DNA of 5,534 bases, from IMG/VR virus record IMGVR_UViG_2690316273_000004, positions 1 to 5,534 of that record, one strand, 5' to 3'. The notes beneath the pieces are model-generated. The model did no database searches, was not told where the DNA came from, and saw only the letters and a program-made list of their open reading frames with translations. Position 1 is the first letter of the stretch; every line of letters begins with the position of its first letter. The position numbers and the translations under genes are program-made. The DNA comes from a virus. Lineage: Duplodnaviria > Heunggongvirae > Uroviricota > Caudoviricetes. Below, in pieces: positions 1 to 5,534 of this stretch.

Positions 1-26
1 ATGACAAGATGTGTATCTACCTTAAC

Positions 27-728
27 TTAATGATTTTGATAAAAATCATTAGGGGATTCATCAGTGTTTAGCATGCTCGCGATACGGTATTCAGGCGGAG
101 TACCTTCATCATCGTCTTTTTGCTGATCGCGCATTTCCTGCACCAGGCGAATACACGTATCCCTGGCGTTCTCCAGCATAAGGAGATGAGAAAGAGACTT
201 TTCAAGAAGAGTGGTTTCCAGAACATCGGCCCCGGACCGACGCAACATAGCGCGCGCGGCCTTCCGCGCTTCAACGTTATCTATCAGGTAATCGCCAGCT
301 TCGAATTCAAAGCGTTCACCATCATCATCCAGGGTGTCGCGTTCCAGGCGATCACGTAAGGTCCGGTGGGCGCGGGTGATCACGTCATGATCATCTGAAC
401 GATCATTTATGCGCTTATTTTGGCGCTTCGCATTCTCGACTGCGGCACTGACAACGGCATTAACTCTCTGTTTTTCCGCTATTTCAGCCGCAATATGATC
501 ACCTGCATGTTGATCATTAGAGTGATCAATGATCATGCTTTTTAGTGGCTTCCTGACTGGCTTATTTGGCTTGCGGCTGTCCGCAGTCCTAGTGTCTTCT
601 TTGAAGGCACGGAGATAACGACGTGCGGTATTAGGGTTAAGATTAAACTCGGCGGCATACTGTGCGATGGTGTAACCACCATCTCGCGCCAGGCGAGCAA
701 AATTCTTCTTGTGATCGTCCCAGGTCAC
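27..728 (-). CDS. Phage-associated DNA-binding protein with N-terminal helix-turn-helix (233 aa); function unresolved, possibly a regulator or small-terminase-like protein
   Basis: Long minus-strand ORF from the track. GTG start at 728 preceded by AAAGGAAG about 5 nt upstream (seen in sequence). N-terminus [22 protein letters not shown] has an HTH-like pattern, followed by a charged, acidic and Arg-rich region. Product is a guess. Confidence 0.55.
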
Positions 729-785
729 TTATGCTTCCTTTCGTAAAAACTCTTTTTGACGCGAGGGTAACGAAAGTCACATGTC

Positions 786-803
786 AAAAGGCCCGGAACG
801 GGC
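786..803 (-). terminator. Candidate weak intrinsic terminator: 5-bp GC stem (GCCCG/CGGGC, loop of 3) followed on the minus transcript by CUUUUG
   Basis: Hairpin gcccggaacgggc at 791-803 lies 11 nt beyond the stop of the 814-1266 gene. Stem is short and the U-run is only 4 nt. Confidence 0.2.
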
Positions 804-813
804 AAGCAATCAA

Positions 814-1266
814 TCAGATACGTGCGGATGTGGCATTACCGTAATGACGGTGCTGACGGGCCACCTTATTGAAAAGTTGACGCGCCATTACCCAAGGCTG
901 GTGCTCCCGGCGTTCCTTTTCGTCCTGCGTCATATAGAGTTCGTTCTGGAGTTTTTCATCAAACCGGCGCGGCGCGCGGCTGCGGCGAAAGAATTCAGGA
1001 TTCAAAGAGTGGATCTGAAATCTACGTGGGCGTGTACTGTCATCAATCAAAACAGACGAATACTTAGACACAGCGATAGCCTTTAAGCGCAGATAAACGT
1101 CGCGCTTATCGACATCCAGATGCGGGTATTCCTTTTCAAGGATTGCTGCGAGTTCTTTCGCTGATAGAAGAGACTTAGTGCGGATCATGTAATCCGCAAT
1201 CTCATACGATGTTATTCGTGAGTGATTTATTTCCATGAAGTGGCGTCCCTGCCAGTTAAGTAACAT
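814..1266 (-). CDS. Hypothetical phage protein (150 aa), Arg-rich, no Cys
   Basis: Minus-strand ORF from the track. ATG at 1266 preceded by AGGTGA 4 nt upstream. An internal ATG 10 codons in (MEINHS) is an alternative start. No recognisable motif. Confidence 0.5.
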   Translation of the reverse strand: MLLNWQGRHFMEINHSRITSYEIADYMIRTKSLLSAKELAAILEKEYPHLDVDKRDVYLRLKAIAVSKYSSVLIDDSTRPRRFQIHSLNPEFFRRSRAPRRFDEKLQNELYMTQDEKERREHQPWVMARQLFNKVARQHRHYGNATSARI

Positions 1267-1311
1267 CCTGTCACCTACTGATTAGCCCATGTCAACTAAT
1301 CAACGTGGAAT

Positions 1312-1339
1312 ATAATACCCTCTATTAAAGAAATAGCAA
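1312..1339 (-). promoter_or_regulatory. Candidate sigma70 promoter for the 814-1266 gene: -35 TTGCTA (1334-1339), 16-bp spacer, -10 TATTAT (1312-1317), read on the minus strand
   Basis: Hexamers read directly from the reverse complement of the 1267-1354 intergenic region. Purely a sequence-pattern call. Confidence 0.2.
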
Positions 1340-1354
1340 TACATTAGAGCAATT

Positions 1355-2398
1355 TTATCTAACGCTCGACGAGTGACTTGTGATAGCGCCGACTCCAAGC
1401 GCGTAATCAAAGAACAATCGTTGATGCATCGCCAGCCTACCGTGCGTCTTCTCCCAATTATCGCGGTCACGCTCAATATCACGCTGGCATGACTGGCACA
1501 GAGGAATTGCGTAAATGTCATGCGCGCATAATCGACTATGACGAACGATATAAGGCGTAATGTGAGCGCCAGCTCCCGCCGCTCCACACCCACAGCATGG
1601 ACGGGAAGCAACAAAGTCCATGTACTCAGGTAATTTTAGCGATTGCAGTTTTGGTATTTTGAAATGCGCCATGCCAGGGTCGGAGTCAACATCCACAGAG
1701 CATACTTTTGCACGCATCGGCGCGGCGCGTTCTTCCATCATCTGAACATATGCTGTAGCGCGATCGTCATACGGGCGAATATCCGCCTCTTTCAGAGGTC
1801 CGCTATCCTGCGTTGCGGCTTTCATCTTATTTATTGATATACGGCAAACTTCTTCCGGCATCAGGTGCATCATGTTGCGCATGAAAGCCCACCAGCACAG
1901 TTCCTGAATACTTAAATCATGGCCATCTGAAAGCCCCATTTCCTGACGGGCGACATCCAGTATCCAGTTAACGCGATTATTATGCAGCGTTTCTTTCAGC
2001 TCATTAAAACCACGCATCCGGTAATGGTTATCGTGATGCCAGCACAACAACACCGCGCTATTGTCTCGTTCTGCGTGGACAATATGGTTGTCACACCAGC
2101 TACGATCTGCGGCCTGGCATTGCCCCTCTTTCCTGCGCAACCACGCCACCAGCGAGTCAATTCCACCAATACGGCGAAACAGTTCATCGCTGTTAAAAAA
2201 CGGCTGCAACGCCTCATTTGTTGCCATAGTTTGCTCGGAAACAACGAGGCCGTCGTCCATGTGCTCGATTAACTCACGCGGCACCGGCTCCATAATAAAT
2301 TTACGGCCAGCCTCCACCAGCTTTCTGACTTCCTGATCCACTTTGAATGTGGCGACGCCAAGCTCTTTTTGTACAAAGGGAGTAATTACGGCTTTCAC
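1355..2398 (-). CDS. DUF968/YdfU-like prophage protein (347 aa) with two Cys/His clusters, putative zinc-binding HNH-like domains
   Basis: Minus-strand ORF from the track. GTG start at 2398 with GAAAGG Shine-Dalgarno. Cys/His clusters [17 protein letters not shown]...LCWHHDNH and CCGCG...H...LCAHD...CQSC. Size and motif pattern match my recollection of E. coli Qin-prophage YdfU (DUF968); not verified by search. Confidence 0.6.
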
Positions 2399-2425
2399 AT
2401 CACACCTTTCATCACTGATTGGGCT

Positions 2426-2626
2426 TTATCTGCTGCCCGGCATTCTCTGTTTAAGCACAACCATTTCCTGACGGCATAACACAGCAATAGCGGTCCTGGC
2501 ACCAATTTGCTTACCAACCAGGTATTGCTTTACCTCGCGGCGACTCACGCCATCAAGAAGCATCTTTAACGCTTCACGGGACAATTTGTTGTATTTACAT
2601 GCCATTAATCTACTCCGCGGAACCAT
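2426..2626 (-). CDS. Small hypothetical protein (66 aa from ATG 2626, or 59 aa from ATG 2605), translationally coupled to the doc 3' end
   Basis: Minus-strand ORF from the track. Its start overlaps the doc stop (2610-2612) by 17 nt, or lies 4 nt downstream of it if ATG 2605 is used. Its stop (2426-2428) is in frame with and 27 nt upstream of the DUF968 start. Basic, possibly DNA-binding; no family recognised. Confidence 0.4.
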
Positions 2627-2990
2627 ACAATCTACGTAACGTGTCGGCGACAGAAGATACAGATATCTCTCCGGTCGCAGCCCCTACGGTAAGGTCTGCC
2701 AGTTCAGGTGAATCAAATACCTGCACCCCGTTACGGCGTAGAAATAACAGCGCACTGTTTAGCGCGGTACGCTTATTGGCATCATTGAATATATGCCCTC
2801 TCGCTGTAGCCACCAGGTAGGTGGCGGAGACTTCGAAAAGGTCGGTGATCTCTTCGTAGGCAACTCTGGCCTGAACTCTCCCGATAATGGCCTCTGCCCT
2901 ACCCGGATCTGACATTCCCGGCAGGCCGCCGTAGCGGTTTATATTCGCATCATGAAGCGCAATAAGTTCTTCCGGTGATATATGCCTCAT
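2610..2990 (-). CDS. doc: Doc toxin (death on curing), Fic/Doc-family kinase, 126 aa
   Basis: Translation [16 protein letters not shown]...[30 protein letters not shown]...LRRLYGSAE matches phage P1 Doc as I recall it. Fic motif HIFNDANKR is intact at 2769-2795. ATG at 2988-2990 overlaps the phd stop by 1 nt. Confidence 0.93.
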
Positions 2991-3211
2991 TATCGGTTAA
3001 CCAGTTCCTTGTTGGTGGAGTCCAGGGTGTCAAACAGGGATGCAAATTCAGCATCCAGCGCCGCTTTTTTGTAGGCTTCGAAAGTAGCCTTGCTGACAAT
3101 TACTGCTGGCTCACGGCCTCTGCGGGTGATTTCAACCTCTTCCCCGGCTTCAACATTGTTGAGCACTTCAGAAAGGTTGCCACGCGCGGTACGGAAGTTA
3201 ATGGATTGCAT
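2990..3211 (-). CDS. phd: Phd antitoxin (prevent host death), 73 aa
   Basis: Translation from ATG 3211, [73 protein letters not shown], matches P1 Phd as I recall it. The track ORF begins 2 codons earlier at a GTG (3217); ATG 3211 with GAGGTG upstream is preferred. Confidence 0.93.
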
Positions 3212-3250
3212 AAACACCTCGTGTACTCGTTATGTGTACACAATTATAAA
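3212..3250 (-). promoter_or_regulatory. phd-doc promoter/operator: -10 TATAAT (3243-3248, minus strand) followed by perfect 10-bp palindrome TGTGTACACA (3233-3242), a second GTGTAC half-site (3221-3226) and GAGGTG Shine-Dalgarno
   Basis: Palindromes and -10 read directly from the sequence. Two palindromic Phd/Doc-binding operator sites overlapping the promoter is the known architecture of P1 phd-doc autoregulation. No good -35 was found. Confidence 0.5.
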
Positions 3251-3321
3251 CTTCACAAGCATAAAGCACCAGCACTTTGCAGCTTAAATCACCGGACAAT
3301 CGTCAAACTCCCCACTTCGGG

Positions 3322-3340
3322 CATCATTGATGAAATGATG
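3322..3340. repeat. Perfect 7-bp inverted repeat catcatt-gatga-aatgatg
   Basis: Seen directly. Lies 16 nt beyond the stop of the 3356-3820 gene and about 75 nt upstream of the phd -10. AT-rich stem and no U-run, so not a canonical terminator; possible protein-binding site. Confidence 0.4.
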
Positions 3341-3355
3341 TGGTCACACCAAACT

Positions 3356-3820
3356 TTAATCTTCAAGGTCTGCTTCTGATACCACTGTATAACCCAGAAA
3401 TATTTTAATCTCATCCCACAATCCCATGATCTTGCCTTCATACTCTGATGGTTCTCTTACAATTACTGAATCTGGGGGAGAGTGAGCCTCTAATTCGGTT
3501 ATGATCTCATGGCAAAGATTATGTTTGTAATATTGTTTTAGTTGCTCTCGAATAGGTTTTGGCGCACTTTCAATAGTTTCTTTTGCGGCATTTAGTGAAA
3601 GAATTATATTACTTGCGTCATTAACATCCCAGTCTGATCCAGCTTTTCCTGTTGCTATTTTATTTGCCCTATCAGCAAAGTTTATCAATGCTTCACTATA
3701 AAATTTTTCCTTATCGAATAATCCAAGCTTTTTACTTGTGCGCAAACTAATAAAAGCAGCTATTGCTGACCCAAATGCCGCAATAGCTGATGCCCAATCG
3801 GGATTGATATGAAGAAACAT
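3356..3820 (-). CDS. Hypothetical membrane-anchored protein (154 aa), AT-rich gene
   Basis: Minus-strand ORF from the track. N-terminal hydrophobic segment WASAIAAFGSAIAAFISL followed by a basic stretch, consistent with a signal-anchor, then a hydrophilic domain. Clearly AT-rich, so likely horizontally acquired. Confidence 0.55.
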   Translation of the reverse strand: MFLHINPDWASAIAAFGSAIAAFISLRTSKKLGLFDKEKFYSEALINFADRANKIATGKAGSDWDVNDASNIILSLNAAKETIESAPKPIREQLKQYYKHNLCHEIITELEAHSPPDSVIVREPSEYEGKIMGLWDEIKIFLGYTVVSEADLED

Positions 3821-3858
3821 GCTATCTCTACCTAATGCCAGATCTTTAACCTAGAAAT

Positions 3859-3886
3859 ATTGTATCAGTAGTTATGGCTTTGCCAC
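3859..3886 (-). promoter_or_regulatory. Candidate promoter for the 3356-3820 gene: -35 GTGGCA (3881-3886), 16-bp spacer, -10 TACAAT (3859-3864), read on the minus strand
   Basis: Hexamers read from the reverse complement of the 84-nt intergenic region 3821-3904. The -35 is weak. Confidence 0.2.
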
Positions 3887-3904
3887 CAGTAATGCGATTT
3901 TTTC

Positions 3905-4564
3905 CTAGTTGTCATTGCCCCCTACCAACGACAATAAAGCCCTGGCCATCTTATGAACCAACAGTGCATCAATAATGCCAAGCGTATGCCCCGGCTTAAT
4001 GTTTAATGCTGCCTCAAGATGCCCCCTTTCCAGACCGCTTTTCTCGGCTTGTTTATGATGATATGGCGTAATAACGTCGCCCAAAACACGGCTAATTCTT
4101 TCTCGTAATTGCTGGGTGCCAGCACACTTGATCGCTGTATCGTGGAGACGGTTAACCAGTTCGCGATAAACATGCGGCTTAATGCGGATACGTTCACCGG
4201 TGACGCCCTTTCCTGGCGCTGGCACCGAACTATCCGGAATATCCGGATAGTTGCCAGCCTCGTAAGCTACCCGCAGCCAGTGCATGAATGTTTCAGTGGA
4301 CACACAACCACAGTCCACATCGATTTTTCCGCGTTGCTGTTCCAGCCACTGCTCAAAATTCAATCTACACGTATTACTTTCATGTTGCTCTTTTTGTCTC
4401 AAGGCCAGCACCTGTTGGGCCAGTTCCAGAACGATACCGGGTGACGCTAACCTCTCAAATTCCAATAAATAGTTTGCGTCAGGATGACAAGTAGCCTCGC
4501 CTGCAAAAAATACCAATTGCTGTAAGTATGCTGTCGTTAGAGTAGTCATTTCTTTTTGCGCCAT
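3905..4564 (-). CDS. Hypothetical soluble protein (219 aa) containing several Cys/His residues, unknown function
   Basis: Minus-strand ORF from the track, about 50% GC. ATG 4564 lies inside the 3' end of the upstream membrane-protein gene (19-nt overlap). Contains CHPD, TCRLN and DCGC. No Walker A or other catalytic motif recognised. Confidence 0.6.
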   Translation of the reverse strand: MAQKEMTTLTTAYLQQLVFFAGEATCHPDANYLLEFERLASPGIVLELAQQVLALRQKEQHESNTCRLNFEQWLEQQRGKIDVDCGCVSTETFMHWLRVAYEAGNYPDIPDSSVPAPGKGVTGERIRIKPHVYRELVNRLHDTAIKCAGTQQLRERISRVLGDVITPYHHKQAEKSGLERGHLEAALNIKPGHTLGIIDALLVHKMARALLSLVGGNDN

Positions 4565-4920
4565 TTCTTTTCACATTCCTTAGTCCATTTTTCAATGTTC
4601 ATTTTGGCAATATCAGTCATTCCATCACCTAAGAAATACTTTTTCCGGTATGTCTTGCACTTAAACCACACTACAACAGCCACCAGCCAGAAAATAAAAG
4701 GCCATACAGCAATACCAACGACAGCCGCGATAAAGCCCAATAGCCATAAATGAAGCTCTCCAACTTCTGTTTCCGGCAATATTCTTAAAGAATTAAACAG
4801 CAGGCTGAACGAATGGTCGTATGCATTGGCAGTATAAGACATGCAATCCATATAATTAAAGTCATAGCCTGCGGCTGCCGCCCATAATGGGCGGTCAAGA
4901 AAATGTTTTAGTGTCATCAT
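4546..4920 (-). CDS. Hypothetical membrane protein (124 aa): N-terminal soluble region, about 30-residue hydrophobic core, polybasic C-terminal tail
   Basis: Minus-strand ORF from the track. Hydrophobic core LHLWLLGFIAAVVGIAVWPFIFWLVAVVVWF (one long helix or a hairpin). C-terminus ends KKWRKKK. Start is 6 nt after the upstream gene stop; no strong Shine-Dalgarno, so probably coupled. Confidence 0.55.
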   Translation of the reverse strand: MMTLKHFLDRPLWAAAAGYDFNYMDCMSYTANAYDHSFSLLFNSLRILPETEVGELHLWLLGFIAAVVGIAVWPFIFWLVAVVVWFKCKTYRKKYFLGDGMTDIAKMNIEKWTKECEKKWRKKK

Positions 4921-4926
4921 ATAAAT

Positions 4927-5220
4927 TTAAGGTTCAGACCAGTTATCTTCAATAGCAATGCTTAATCTTTGTAGCCATTCTGCTAATTTCAGCATTGCTT
5001 CTCTTTCGCTTAAACCACGAGGAAAATCATCAAGCGAAATTGTTGGCTTGAATCCACCGTAATTATCCATTTCAACTGTCAGATTTTGTTCCAGCAAGGT
5101 ATTTCTTACGCGGCTATTGTGCCGGAGCAAATATACTGAGCGTGATTTATTGGTTTTGTGGTCTAGCTTATATTCGGTAAGTATCATCTGGCTTTTGCCA
5201 TGACTATTACCTCTCCACAT
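4927..5220 (-). CDS. Hypothetical small soluble protein (97 aa), AT-rich gene
   Basis: The track ORF runs 4927-5316 from a TTG. I prefer ATG 5220 (MWRGNSHGKSQMILTEYK...) because it is preceded by GAGGT at 5-nt spacing and the N-terminal extension overlaps a better small ORF in another frame. Confidence 0.5.
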   Translation of the reverse strand: MWRGNSHGKSQMILTEYKLDHKTNKSRSVYLLRHNSRVRNTLLEQNLTVEMDNYGGFKPTISLDDFPRGLSEREAMLKLAEWLQRLSIAIEDNWSEP

Positions 5221-5227
5221 ACTTACC

Positions 5228-5350
5228 TCACTTAATAAAACAACTCCATGCGTAGTTGATGATTTTTTCCCACGCAATATAAATCTGCACTCCGGCAGTA
5301 AAACCAAAGCCAACAATTGCTGAAAAAATCAAAACATTTACTTTTGACAT
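5228..5350 (-). CDS. Candidate small hydrophobic peptide (40 aa, single predicted transmembrane helix); not in the ORF track
   Basis: Hand-translated from the reverse complement: MSKVNVLIFSAIVGFGFTAGVQIYIAWEKIINYAWSCFIK. ATG at 5348-5350, TGA at 5228-5230. Its stop overlaps the GAGGT Shine-Dalgarno of the next gene. Short ORFs are error-prone calls. Confidence 0.3.
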   Translation of the reverse strand: MSKVNVLIFSAIVGFGFTAGVQIYIAWEKIINYAWSCFIK

Positions 5351-5534
5351 TATAAATTTTCTCTCGGTGTCGTAGGTGATAGCACCATAATTGATAATTT
5401 AGTGAGTTAGCAGTTCCATTTTTTTGATGATTTCCGCATGAGCATCATCGTTATCAACACTTAGCTCTGAGAGATCCCCTCATAATTTCCCCAAAACGTA
5501 ACCATGTGTGAATAGATTTTGAGTAAGCAGGGTT

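Follow-up and report, generated by a model that had tools for sequence, protein, structure and literature searches.

The addiction module of bacteriophage P1 consists of an antitoxin, Phd, and a toxin, Doc. Doc is a Fic-fold kinase that phosphorylates EF-Tu and so blocks translation. Phd neutralises Doc and represses the operon promoter, Pphd, but is itself degraded by ClpXP; therefore, cells that lose the plasmid prophage are poisoned. Plasmids are reportedly stabilised by phd-doc alone (Lehnherr 1993). In P1, P7, SJ46 and RCS47, the module is followed by pdcA, pdcB, lpa and pacA (AF234172 / NC_005856). A toxin-antitoxin (TA) locus of another family is found in the Qin prophage of E. coli K-12, where relB, relE, hokD, rem and ydfU lie in this order on one strand, with ydfT/quuQ next.

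The DNA analysed here is a viral stretch of 5,534 nt (“the window”, meaning the whole of that stretch). The first-pass annotation gave the Qin order correctly and proposed that the window has a similar one, namely phd-doc, a small ORF and a Cys/His-rich 347-aa protein, in a lambdoid prophage in which one TA family can be exchanged for another upstream of a ydfU homologue. All four ORFs are indeed present on the minus strand, among the following features.

1-64, minus strand: IS10/ISVsa5, first 64 nt (transposase-proximal end); 100% identical to R100 36132-36195, with the remainder outside the window.
65-728, minus strand: pacA', the 5' 222 codons of P1 pacase subunit A; 98.6% identical to residues 1-222 of the 397-aa P1 PacA; PHROG 1711 'terminase', 5e-104.
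764-782, minus strand: LPpac, P1 late promoter; -10 and -22 elements, identical to the AF234172 features.
814-1266, minus strand: lpa, late promoter-activating protein (P1 gene 10); Pfam BPP1_LPA, 3.1e-57; 100% identical to P1 Lpa.
1312-1353, minus strand: sigma-70 promoter Plpa (1312-1339), overlapping C1 operator Olpa/Op94 (1337-1353); identical to the annotated P1 features.
1355-2398, minus strand: pdcB, 347 aa, DUF968; homologous to Qin YdfU; predicted His-Me (HNH) finger fold.
2426-2605, minus strand: pdcA (fdc in P7); 59 aa is the likelier length, per PGAP ('PdcA protein') and PHROG 3345; a 66-aa alternative starts at 2626 and overlaps doc.
2610-2990, minus strand: doc, Fic-fold toxin, 126 aa; Pfam Fic, 2e-9; PHROG 577 'Doc-like toxin', 3.4e-49; 99.2% identical to P1 Doc.
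2990-3211, minus strand: phd, Phd/YefM antitoxin, 73 aa, ATG at 3211; Pfam PhdYeFM_antitox, 3.1e-13; 100% identical to P1 Phd.
3243-3271, minus strand: Pphd, addiction operon promoter; -10 at 3243-3248 and -35 at 3266-3271, hexamers identical to those annotated for P1 Pphd.
3288-3353, minus strand: humD 3' remnant, the last ~20 codons; its translation ends ...INDARSGEFDDCPVI before the stop codon and equals the HumD C-terminus.
3356-5316, minus strand: cargo replacing P1 humD-lxr-hot; 154 aa (3356-3820), 219 aa (3905-4564), 124 aa (4546-4920) and 97/129 aa (4927-5220/5316).
5467-5534, minus strand: IS10/ISVsa5, last 68 nt; 100% identical to R100 37393-37460, in the same orientation as the left-end copy.

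The window is very probably a fragment of a P1-like phage-plasmid (Punavirus, IncY type), and the region of interest its phd-doc-pdcA-pdcB segment. We judge the window P1-like and not lambdoid because the proteins of the four ORFs are 96–100% identical to those of P1, matches far beyond chance, and are followed by lpa, a truncated pacA, P1 promoters and a C1 operator. Thus, the proposed lambdoid identity has to be given up: Lpa, PacA, the C1 operator and a P1 late promoter stand downstream, not Q, RusA, nin or lambda-type replication genes. Positions 65–3353 have 97.75% nucleotide identity to P1, and positions 65–5467 have 98.3% to the IncY plasmid pVPS18EC0801-3, the nearest complete relative. 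P1, P7, SJ46, RCS47 and IncY plasmids of about 93–99 kb show 97–98% identity to the window and synteny that includes lpa, pacA and C1 operators. From phd to pacA, the window agrees with the four named phages in the order, strand and spacing of its genes and in its regulatory sites. Unlike in P1, pacA is truncated by IS10, and a second IS10 end lies on the other side; the open frame of pacA' continues into IS10 to position 27. The two window ends correspond to opposite ends of one 1329-bp element (R100 36132-37460; IS10, IS4 family) whose interior is absent from the window, and the R100 annotation over the right-end match reads 'IS4-like element ISVsa5 family transposase'. Here phd-doc-pdcA-pdcB lies on a 5.4-kb fragment with an IS10 end at either side, and one of these ends cuts pacA short. 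A search of the whole window for RNA families gave no match (Rfam, E<=0.1).

On sequence grounds, phd-doc is the classical P1 addiction module, and autoregulation and post-segregational killing would be carried over from P1 at 99–100% identity. The antitoxin gene is directly upstream of the toxin gene, and the phd stop and doc start codons overlap by 1 nt (gap -1). Doc has an intact Fic motif, HIFNDANKR at residue 66, of the form HxFx(D/N)(A/G)N(K/G)R.

The relationship proposed between the 347-aa protein and YdfU is borne out. It was also already known: the P1 GenBank record has noted it ever since publication of the genome. PdcB contains 12 Cys and 16 His and is 96.3% identical to P1 PdcB. 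It matches Pfam DUF968 (PF06147) at 2.4e-50, with 171.3 bits against a cut-off of 27.8, and residues 1–339 align by BLASTP with YdfU 1–348 (E=3e-44, 26% identity over 355 columns). Searches with PdcB as a single sequence returned almost only P1-like proteins; the YdfU clade was reached only with an alignment as query.

DUF968 has been classed in group 7 of the His-Me fingers (PMC5714182), a group (DUF968/DUF1364) that includes YdfU and YbcO (PDB 3g27). A moderately confident AF2 model of PdcB (mean pLDDT 71, 38-sequence alignment) predicts a beta-beta-alpha-metal (HNH) fold. However, the canonical His-His dyad and the C-terminal metal-binding His are missing from the P1 PdcB clade, whereas YdfU keeps them: the motif is DPHH...AHD...C-x2-(C/H)H-x-ELH in the YdfU clade, and in the PdcB clade it includes GAHITPY or AARISPY. 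Pfam HNHc_6 and RecA_dep_nuc both match YdfU, and neither matches PdcB. The PdcB finger is predicted to resemble those of YbcO and of the P1 RecA-dependent nuclease Ref (PDB 3plw). A PdcB family profile matched no solved structure in the PDB at E<=1. PdcB may be non-catalytic, because its clade has lost the His-His dyad; it probably has a role in DNA processing or recombination. Our search of the ydfU/DUF968 literature found only papers on the Orf family and on His-Me fingers.

The small ORF, which the first-pass annotation had tentatively equated with rem, is pdcA. It is 95.5% identical to P1 PdcA and matches PHROG 3345 at 1.3e-42 (residues 8–66 aligned). Compared with Rem, it gave no BLASTP alignment at E<=100, no match to Pfam PF27490 (Rem) at E<=5, and an hhalign probability of 0.4%. 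The Qin gene that abuts ydfU is in fact an unannotated 92-aa ORF (orf92), not rem. We considered orf92 as a counterpart of PdcA and rejected it (hhalign probability 0.1%). An all-against-all comparison of PdcA with small ORFs that precede other DUF968 genes (orf92, 85 aa, 109 aa, 111 aa and D6 orf99) likewise found nothing, and PdcA and PdcB have no PADLOC or NCBIfam matches. Since pdcA adjoins doc in D6, in locus L103 and in IncF plasmids, it is probably a small passenger gene that moves with phd-doc.

Do phd, doc, pdcA and pdcB form one functional unit, in which PdcA and/or PdcB would work together with the TA, say as regulator and as nuclease effector or rescue factor? The four genes have the same orientation, with spacings of -1 nt, 4 nt (a 17-nt overlap if pdcA encodes 66 aa) and 27 nt, and phd-doc-pdcA-pdcB is present in 46 of 46 close P1-like contigs that include upstream DNA. 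There is no terminator-like site between doc, pdcA and pdcB, so that the TA and pdcAB may be linked in function; counts in the promoter/terminator scan did not exceed those in shuffled sequences, and P1 annotates no pdcA or pdcB promoter. However, the genes part company in other elements. P1-like elements with PdcB of 65–70% identity (including locus L047) keep pdcB-lpa-pacAB-c1, and have neither phd-doc nor any other TA there. Conversely, D6-type phages have phd-doc-pdcA about 3–5 kb from an unlinked pdcB homologue, and IncF plasmids have phd-doc-pdcA next to hsdMSR, without pdcB or with a 5' pdcB stub. More diverged copies of phd-doc, identified as matches to window positions 2619–3353, lack pdcA. 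The reported ability of phd-doc to stabilise plasmids by itself also argues against a four-gene unit. So does the dispensability of pdcB: P1 is viable after its knock-down or disruption (PMC10695390, PMC10067587). We consider such a unit very unlikely.

More probably, pdcB is a phage backbone gene. It stands directly before lpa, a late activator gene under C1 control, in the way that DUF968 genes of the YdfU type stand before (RusA and) Q in lambdoids. The C1 operator Olpa/Op94 starts 2 nt past the pdcB stop codon, and Plpa was recovered in the promoter scan as TTGCTA-16-TATTAT. Lpa and Q have no similarity and are functional analogues only.

The likeness to Qin is in the layout. Qin and the window each encode a DUF968 protein of equal length and architecture directly before a late-gene activator (Q in Qin, Lpa in the window), and TA genes stand upstream in the same orientation. 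In contrast, the TA genes are RelBE plus Hok in Qin and Phd/Doc in the window, neither the small ORFs nor the activators Lpa and Q are related to each other, and there is no DNA similarity. PdcB is the sole window protein that matches anything in 16 kb of Qin. That single homologous gene, together with the different TA families and the absence of a TA from diverged P1-like and non-E. coli DUF968 loci, is consistent with pure coincidence: accessory DNA often contains TAs, and that one lies near DUF968 in each of two unrelated phages could be meaningless. We find this doubtful, as the TA of either phage family marks the border between variable cargo and a DUF968/late-activator backbone, and patches of collinear homology further upstream connect the P1-like and lambdoid regions.

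Those patches come from pVPS18EC0801-3, which has a block of DUF551 genes further upstream. Homologues of this block, in DNA and protein, are collinear and lie before hok-orf92-DUF968 in some lambdoid prophages, with collinear DNA matches of 77–98% in three lambdoid loci (L079, L121 and L091). The nearest P1-like plasmid and some lambdoids thus have homologous DNA on both sides of the TA interval, which makes a shared “slot”, rather than independent acquisitions, possible. The first-pass annotation had proposed one homologous, exchangeable TA/defence slot upstream of DUF968, in which phd-doc was swapped for relBE-hokD. The YdfU homology, the TA/late-activator layout and the DUF551 flank agree with this, as does the differing content upstream of pdcB among P1-like clades, one of which has a DUF6884/PDC-M57A-like gene instead of phd-doc-pdcA. 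Against it, PdcA is neither Rem nor orf92, the element is not lambdoid, and phd-doc is not an exchangeable occupant of the site. The module is invariant in the close P1-likes, absent from diverged P1-like clades and unlinked to pdcB in D6, and of the 50,697 phage records searched, none from a lambdoid phage holds a Doc homologue. A repeat search found no repeats or cassette boundaries around phd-doc, only short matches expected by chance.

The lambdoid side is likewise fixed. All 28 distinct genome contexts from E. coli (28 of 28) show the order hok-(rem or lipoprotein gene)-orf92-DUF968-RusA-Q, and just 1 of the 21 viral loci of lambdoid type has relBE, which the literature describes as inserted at hokD (PMC6379469). 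Hence, hok-orf92-DUF968-(RusA)-Q forms a constant block in the lambdoids of E. coli, to which relBE is seldom added. At 13 DUF968 loci from more distant phages, the upstream genes encode RusA, Dam, antirepressor and colicin proteins, and no type II TA. With the TA fixed per lineage in this way, a single exchangeable slot appears unlikely. We favour instead modular mosaicism as the source of the resemblance: a DUF968-plus-late-activator backbone would be common to both phage types, and a different TA would have become fixed independently in each lineage, phd-doc-pdcA in P1 proper and hok in the lambdoids of E. coli, where K-12 has gained relBE as well.

Exchange does occur, one step further upstream. 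Homology of the window to P1 and P7 (blastn) ends at 3353, where the element's own cargo begins; unlike in P1, four genes of unknown function replace humD-lxr-hot upstream of phd, leaving the humD 3' stub. The cargo has a low G+C content (35–40% over most of 3356–5316). Its four genes match only PHROG families of unknown function, with no Pfam, NCBIfam or PADLOC matches, and the same genes are found in CP063718. Directly upstream of phd, the 44 informative P1-like contigs have humD (29), a type IC restriction-modification system (11), the 154-aa gene (2) or a GerE-type gene (2). The hsdM-hsdS(-hsdR) genes occupy the interval upstream of Pphd in those 11 contigs and in an IncF plasmid, and the P1 record notes homologies to EcoDXXI and R124/3. 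For type IC hsd loci with P1 DNA on their flanks, PMC12707154 cites Tyndall et al. 1997, and a “variable region H” has been described for P1-like phage-plasmids (PMC9603915). The interval directly upstream of Pphd is thus an exchange site that was recognised as early as the work on type IC hsd. Unlike those cases, the site in the window holds four uncharacterised genes without a PADLOC match. In Qin-likes, the genes found upstream of hok are relBE, PDC-S39, PDC-S15 or QueH; a lambdoid defence hotspot at this position is not described in Vassallo et al. In both phage types, therefore, the exchangeable cargo sites lie one step upstream of the TA, before phd or before hok, and not at the TA position itself.

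We also considered a stronger proposal, that P1-likes and E. coli lambdoids share one recombining layout (exchangeable defence or accessory cargo, lineage-fixed TA, small ORF, DUF968 gene, late activator). The TA would be an anchor that stabilises the cargo hotspot beside it, and cargo would pass from one phage type to the other by recombination at the DUF968/late-activator edge and at DUF551-type genes. At present this seems to us distinctly unlikely.

What, then, is the significance of the locus? It is the textbook P1 addiction module, and its likeness to Qin is loose and largely documented already, so that it carries little weight as a discovery. Its use is in correcting the first reading: the window belongs with P1 and not with the lambdoids, and the TA is a constant landmark, not an exchangeable unit. 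Variable cargo adjoins the TA both here and in Qin-likes, where the candidate defence genes PDC-S39 and PDC-S15 are found at the relBE position. If the shared layout is functional, a DUF968 gene with an adjacent TA would be a simple anchor in the search for defence cargo in two kinds of mobile element that are very common in E. coli.

Every coding gene of the window lies on the minus strand, and those in 1355-3211 are transcribed in the order phd, doc, pdcA, pdcB:

2990-3211, minus: phd, 73 aa; Pfam PhdYeFM_antitox (3.1e-13); 100% identical to P1
2610-2990, minus: doc, 126 aa; Pfam Fic (2e-9); PHROG 'Doc-like toxin' (3.4e-49); Fic motif HIFNDANKR; 99.2% identical to P1
2426-2626 (66 aa) or 2426-2605 (59 aa, from the PGAP and PHROG 3345 start), minus: pdcA; PHROG 3345; 95.5% identical to P1
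1355-2398, minus: pdcB, 347 aa; Pfam DUF968 (2.4e-50); 12 Cys and 16 His; 96.3% identical to P1

Gene calls, Pfam and PHROG matches, and the P1 identities thus confirm the order reported in the first-pass annotation: phd-doc, a small ORF, and a YdfU-sized Cys/His-rich protein. The Qin order with which it was compared (relB, relE, hokD, rem and ydfU on one strand) is also right, ydfT/quuQ being next. The window is not part of a lambdoid prophage; it matches P1-type phages and IncY-type plasmids instead. Megablast against phage records returned only P1, P7, SJ46, RCS47, D6 and related phages (96-99% identity). The top plasmid matches are non-mobilisable and about 93-99 kb, the best being typed IncY, and plasmid pVPS18EC0801-3 aligns with 65-5467 without gaps at 98.3%. 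Downstream of pdcB are the late promoter activator gene lpa (100% identical to P1) and codons 1-222 of the packaging gene pacA. Every base is as in P1 in Pphd, Plpa, the late promoter LPpac and the C1 operator Olpa/Op94, which begins 2 nt past the pdcB stop codon. By this identity to P1, Phd/Doc addiction would be expressed from Pphd, and lpa would be under C1 control at Olpa. Transcription from Pphd probably reads through into pdcA and pdcB, since the stretch between has neither a terminator-like site nor an annotated promoter.

Both edges of the window are ends of IS10/ISVsa5:

1-64 and 5467-5534, same orientation: opposite termini of the 1329-bp element

Hence, the contig is a P1-like fragment bracketed by IS10, with pacA disrupted. 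The left copy cuts pacA after codon 222, which would leave the prophage unable to package DNA. The 9-mers flanking the two ends differ (TGTTTAGCA and CACTTAGCT), which suggests either two independent insertions or that the assembly broke at a repeat.

How far does the similarity to Qin extend? PdcB can be aligned with YdfU from end to end (26% identity, E=3e-44), as expected if the 347-aa protein is a YdfU homologue. Indeed, the P1 GenBank record already annotates PdcB as '25 pct identical to ... P76162', a putative E. coli protein that, from the accession mapping, we take to be YdfU. When the window is compared with 16 kb of Qin, PdcB is its sole protein with a match, and the DNA shows no similarity. 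The proposal that the small ORF corresponds to rem fails: PdcA has no BLASTP similarity to Rem and no Pfam Rem match, and hhalign gave 0.4%. In Qin, the gene abutting ydfU is not rem but an intact 92-aa ORF, orf92, that is missing from the MG1655 annotation:

8310-8585 of the extracted Qin locus L003 (NC_000913.3 about 1644309-1644584), minus: orf92, between rem and ydfU

It ends 4 nt ahead of the ydfU start; in all E. coli lambdoid contexts examined, the ORF abutting the DUF968 gene is its homologue (76% identity, E=4e-47). PdcA was rejected as its counterpart, the two being unrelated. Lpa and the lambdoid late activator Q have no sequence relationship and are functional analogues only.

DUF968 has been placed with DUF1364/YbcO in His-Me finger group 7, and a role in recombination has been proposed (PMC5714182). 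An AF2 model of PdcB (38 sequences; mean pLDDT 71) is confident at roughly residues 60-190 and most of 250-340, and has beta-beta-alpha units at 106-129 and 281-310. YdfU retains the canonical DPHH...AHD...C-x2-(C/H)H-x-ELH and weakly matches Pfam HNHc_6 and RecA_dep_nuc, whereas proteins of the PdcB clade no longer have the His-His dyad and last His and match neither family. In the PdcB Cys/His clusters (residues 94-130 and 268-310), both His-His dyads of YdfU-type proteins are replaced (WCDN for YHHS; GAHITPY or AARISPY for DPHHLIGH). These replacements point to a zinc-knuckle protein that is nuclease-dead, and PdcB of the P1 clade is possibly catalytically inactive. P1 growth does not need pdcB (PMC10695390, PMC10067587). 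We regard PdcB as a putative DNA-binding or DNA-processing accessory protein. In three 607-aa database proteins (P0024, P0026, P0028), a complete YdfU-type DUF968 is linked with an antiterminator Q domain (PF03589), probably as the result of read-through or a frameshift between the adjacent genes.

Phd-doc had been viewed as an interchangeable occupant of a slot next to DUF968. Within each lineage, the toxin-antitoxin (TA) system is fixed, not swapped. Phd-Doc-PdcA-PdcB occurs in all 46 IMG/VR contigs that have PdcB at 96% or more and upstream DNA present; P1-like elements have phd, doc and pdcB among their best-conserved genes (PMC9603915); and phd-doc-pdcA is also found in one relative with 80% PdcB. 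This constancy might suggest a four-gene functional unit, which we consider highly improbable. Relatives from Klebsiella, Salmonella and E. coli with PdcB at 65-70% retain pdcB-lpa-pacA-pacB-c1 with no TA upstream, a small unrelated ORF, often with a DUF6884 protein, replacing it. In D6-type phages the pdcB homologue is unlinked, about 3-5 kb from phd-doc-pdcA, and many IncF and other plasmids match only 2121-3287 or 2401-3287 and so carry phd-doc-pdcA, in some cases with a pdcB stub. Together, these observations argue that phd-doc-pdcA moves as a three-gene module, which one P1 sub-lineage acquired and has retained; pdcB is a backbone gene together with lpa. The DUF6884 protein lies two genes 5ʹ of pdcB in Klebsiella/Salmonella P1-like plasmids with 67-70% PdcB (L093 4984-5745; L101 1881-2945), and weakly matches PADLOC PDC-M57A (4e-9 to 5e-11) and DpdC.

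Lambdoid phages have their own arrangement. Of 50,697 phage records, only 27 contain a Doc homologue. These are P1/D6-type phages, five phages of Burkholderia and one contig from Salmonella; none is a lambdoid coliphage. The order hok-(rem or lipoprotein gene)-orf92-DUF968-RusA-Q is found in 28 of 28 distinct E. coli genome contexts derived from three YdfU-type proteins. Only one of 21 lambdoid viral loci has relBE, which has been described as having inserted at hokD/mokD (PMC6379469). The 3.5 kb upstream of 13 DUF968 loci in more distant phages encodes RusA, Dam, a C5-methylase, antirepressor, Rha, DinI and colicin-plus-immunity genes, and no type II TA. A TA beside DUF968 is thus not a general rule. 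A single homologous TA slot, as the YdfU homology and shared order could imply, is unlikely.

The idea of an exchangeable TA or defence site holds in spirit; its position does not, since the site is one step upstream of the TA that was taken for the cassette. Directly upstream of phd/Pphd, P1-like contigs carry:

29 contigs: humD
11 contigs: divergent type I R-M operon (hsdM, variable hsdS, EcoR124-type hsdR)
2 contigs: the window's 154-aa gene
2 contigs: GerE-type gene

The R-M operon is thus present in 11 of 44 informative P1-like viral contigs (L007, L013, L014, L019, L020, L022, L026, L030, L037, L039, L041), and an IncF plasmid (L125) has the same phd-hsdMSR junction. Among these contigs hsdS is highly variable, and hsdR is in fragments in L026. 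This exchange site was described by Tyndall et al. 1997, as cited in PMC12707154, is also indicated by notes in the P1 record, and corresponds to 'variable region H' (PMC9603915).

In the window, P1 homology ends at 3353, within the last humD codons:

3288-3353: humD stub, last ~20 codons

It is the point of recombination at which the conserved phd promoter region gives way to this element's cargo. Four low-G+C genes at 3356-5316 (154, 219, 124 and 97/129 aa) replace P1 humD-lxr-hot and have no match in PADLOC, Pfam or NCBIfam. In other P1-like elements their site is occupied by a type IC R-M system. Hydrophobic, membrane-like stretches are present in the 154-aa and 124-aa products, and positions 3924-4265, within the 219-aa gene, match the P1 pmgU/pmgT region at 94% identity.

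The DNA homology of Qin-like prophages starts within hok. In those that lack relBE, the corresponding position just 5ʹ of hok has other occupants, including QueH, an HTH gene paired with a GNAT gene (in some cases with IS110), and two PADLOC defence candidates:

L075 3569-5356, reverse-oriented single gene: 595 aa, DUF7380+DUF4209, PDC-S39 (E=3e-102)
L077 3896-5230, reverse-oriented single gene: 444 aa, FRG domain, PDC-S15 (E=7e-99)

In the variable region of pVPS18EC0801-3, the nearest P1-like plasmid, a DUF551 block lies with three small genes at 2-5 kb upstream of phd; these have collinear homologues 5ʹ of hok-orf92-DUF968 in three lambdoid loci (77-98% DNA and 70-99% protein identity):

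L002 (pVPS18EC0801-3) 8575-10457: collinear with L079 4234-5591, L121 1022-2439 and L091 685-1065

These patches point to exchange of material between P1-like and lambdoid phages in this region. That PdcB-YdfU is the only homologous pair would fit pure coincidence between the two gene orders, which, given the patches and the position of the TA at the edge of variable cargo in both phage types, we rather doubt.

Overall, the observation is correct and its interpretation partly supported: YdfU homology stands, and Rem, a lambdoid element and the TA as the exchangeable unit do not. Both the locus and its main relationships had been described previously.
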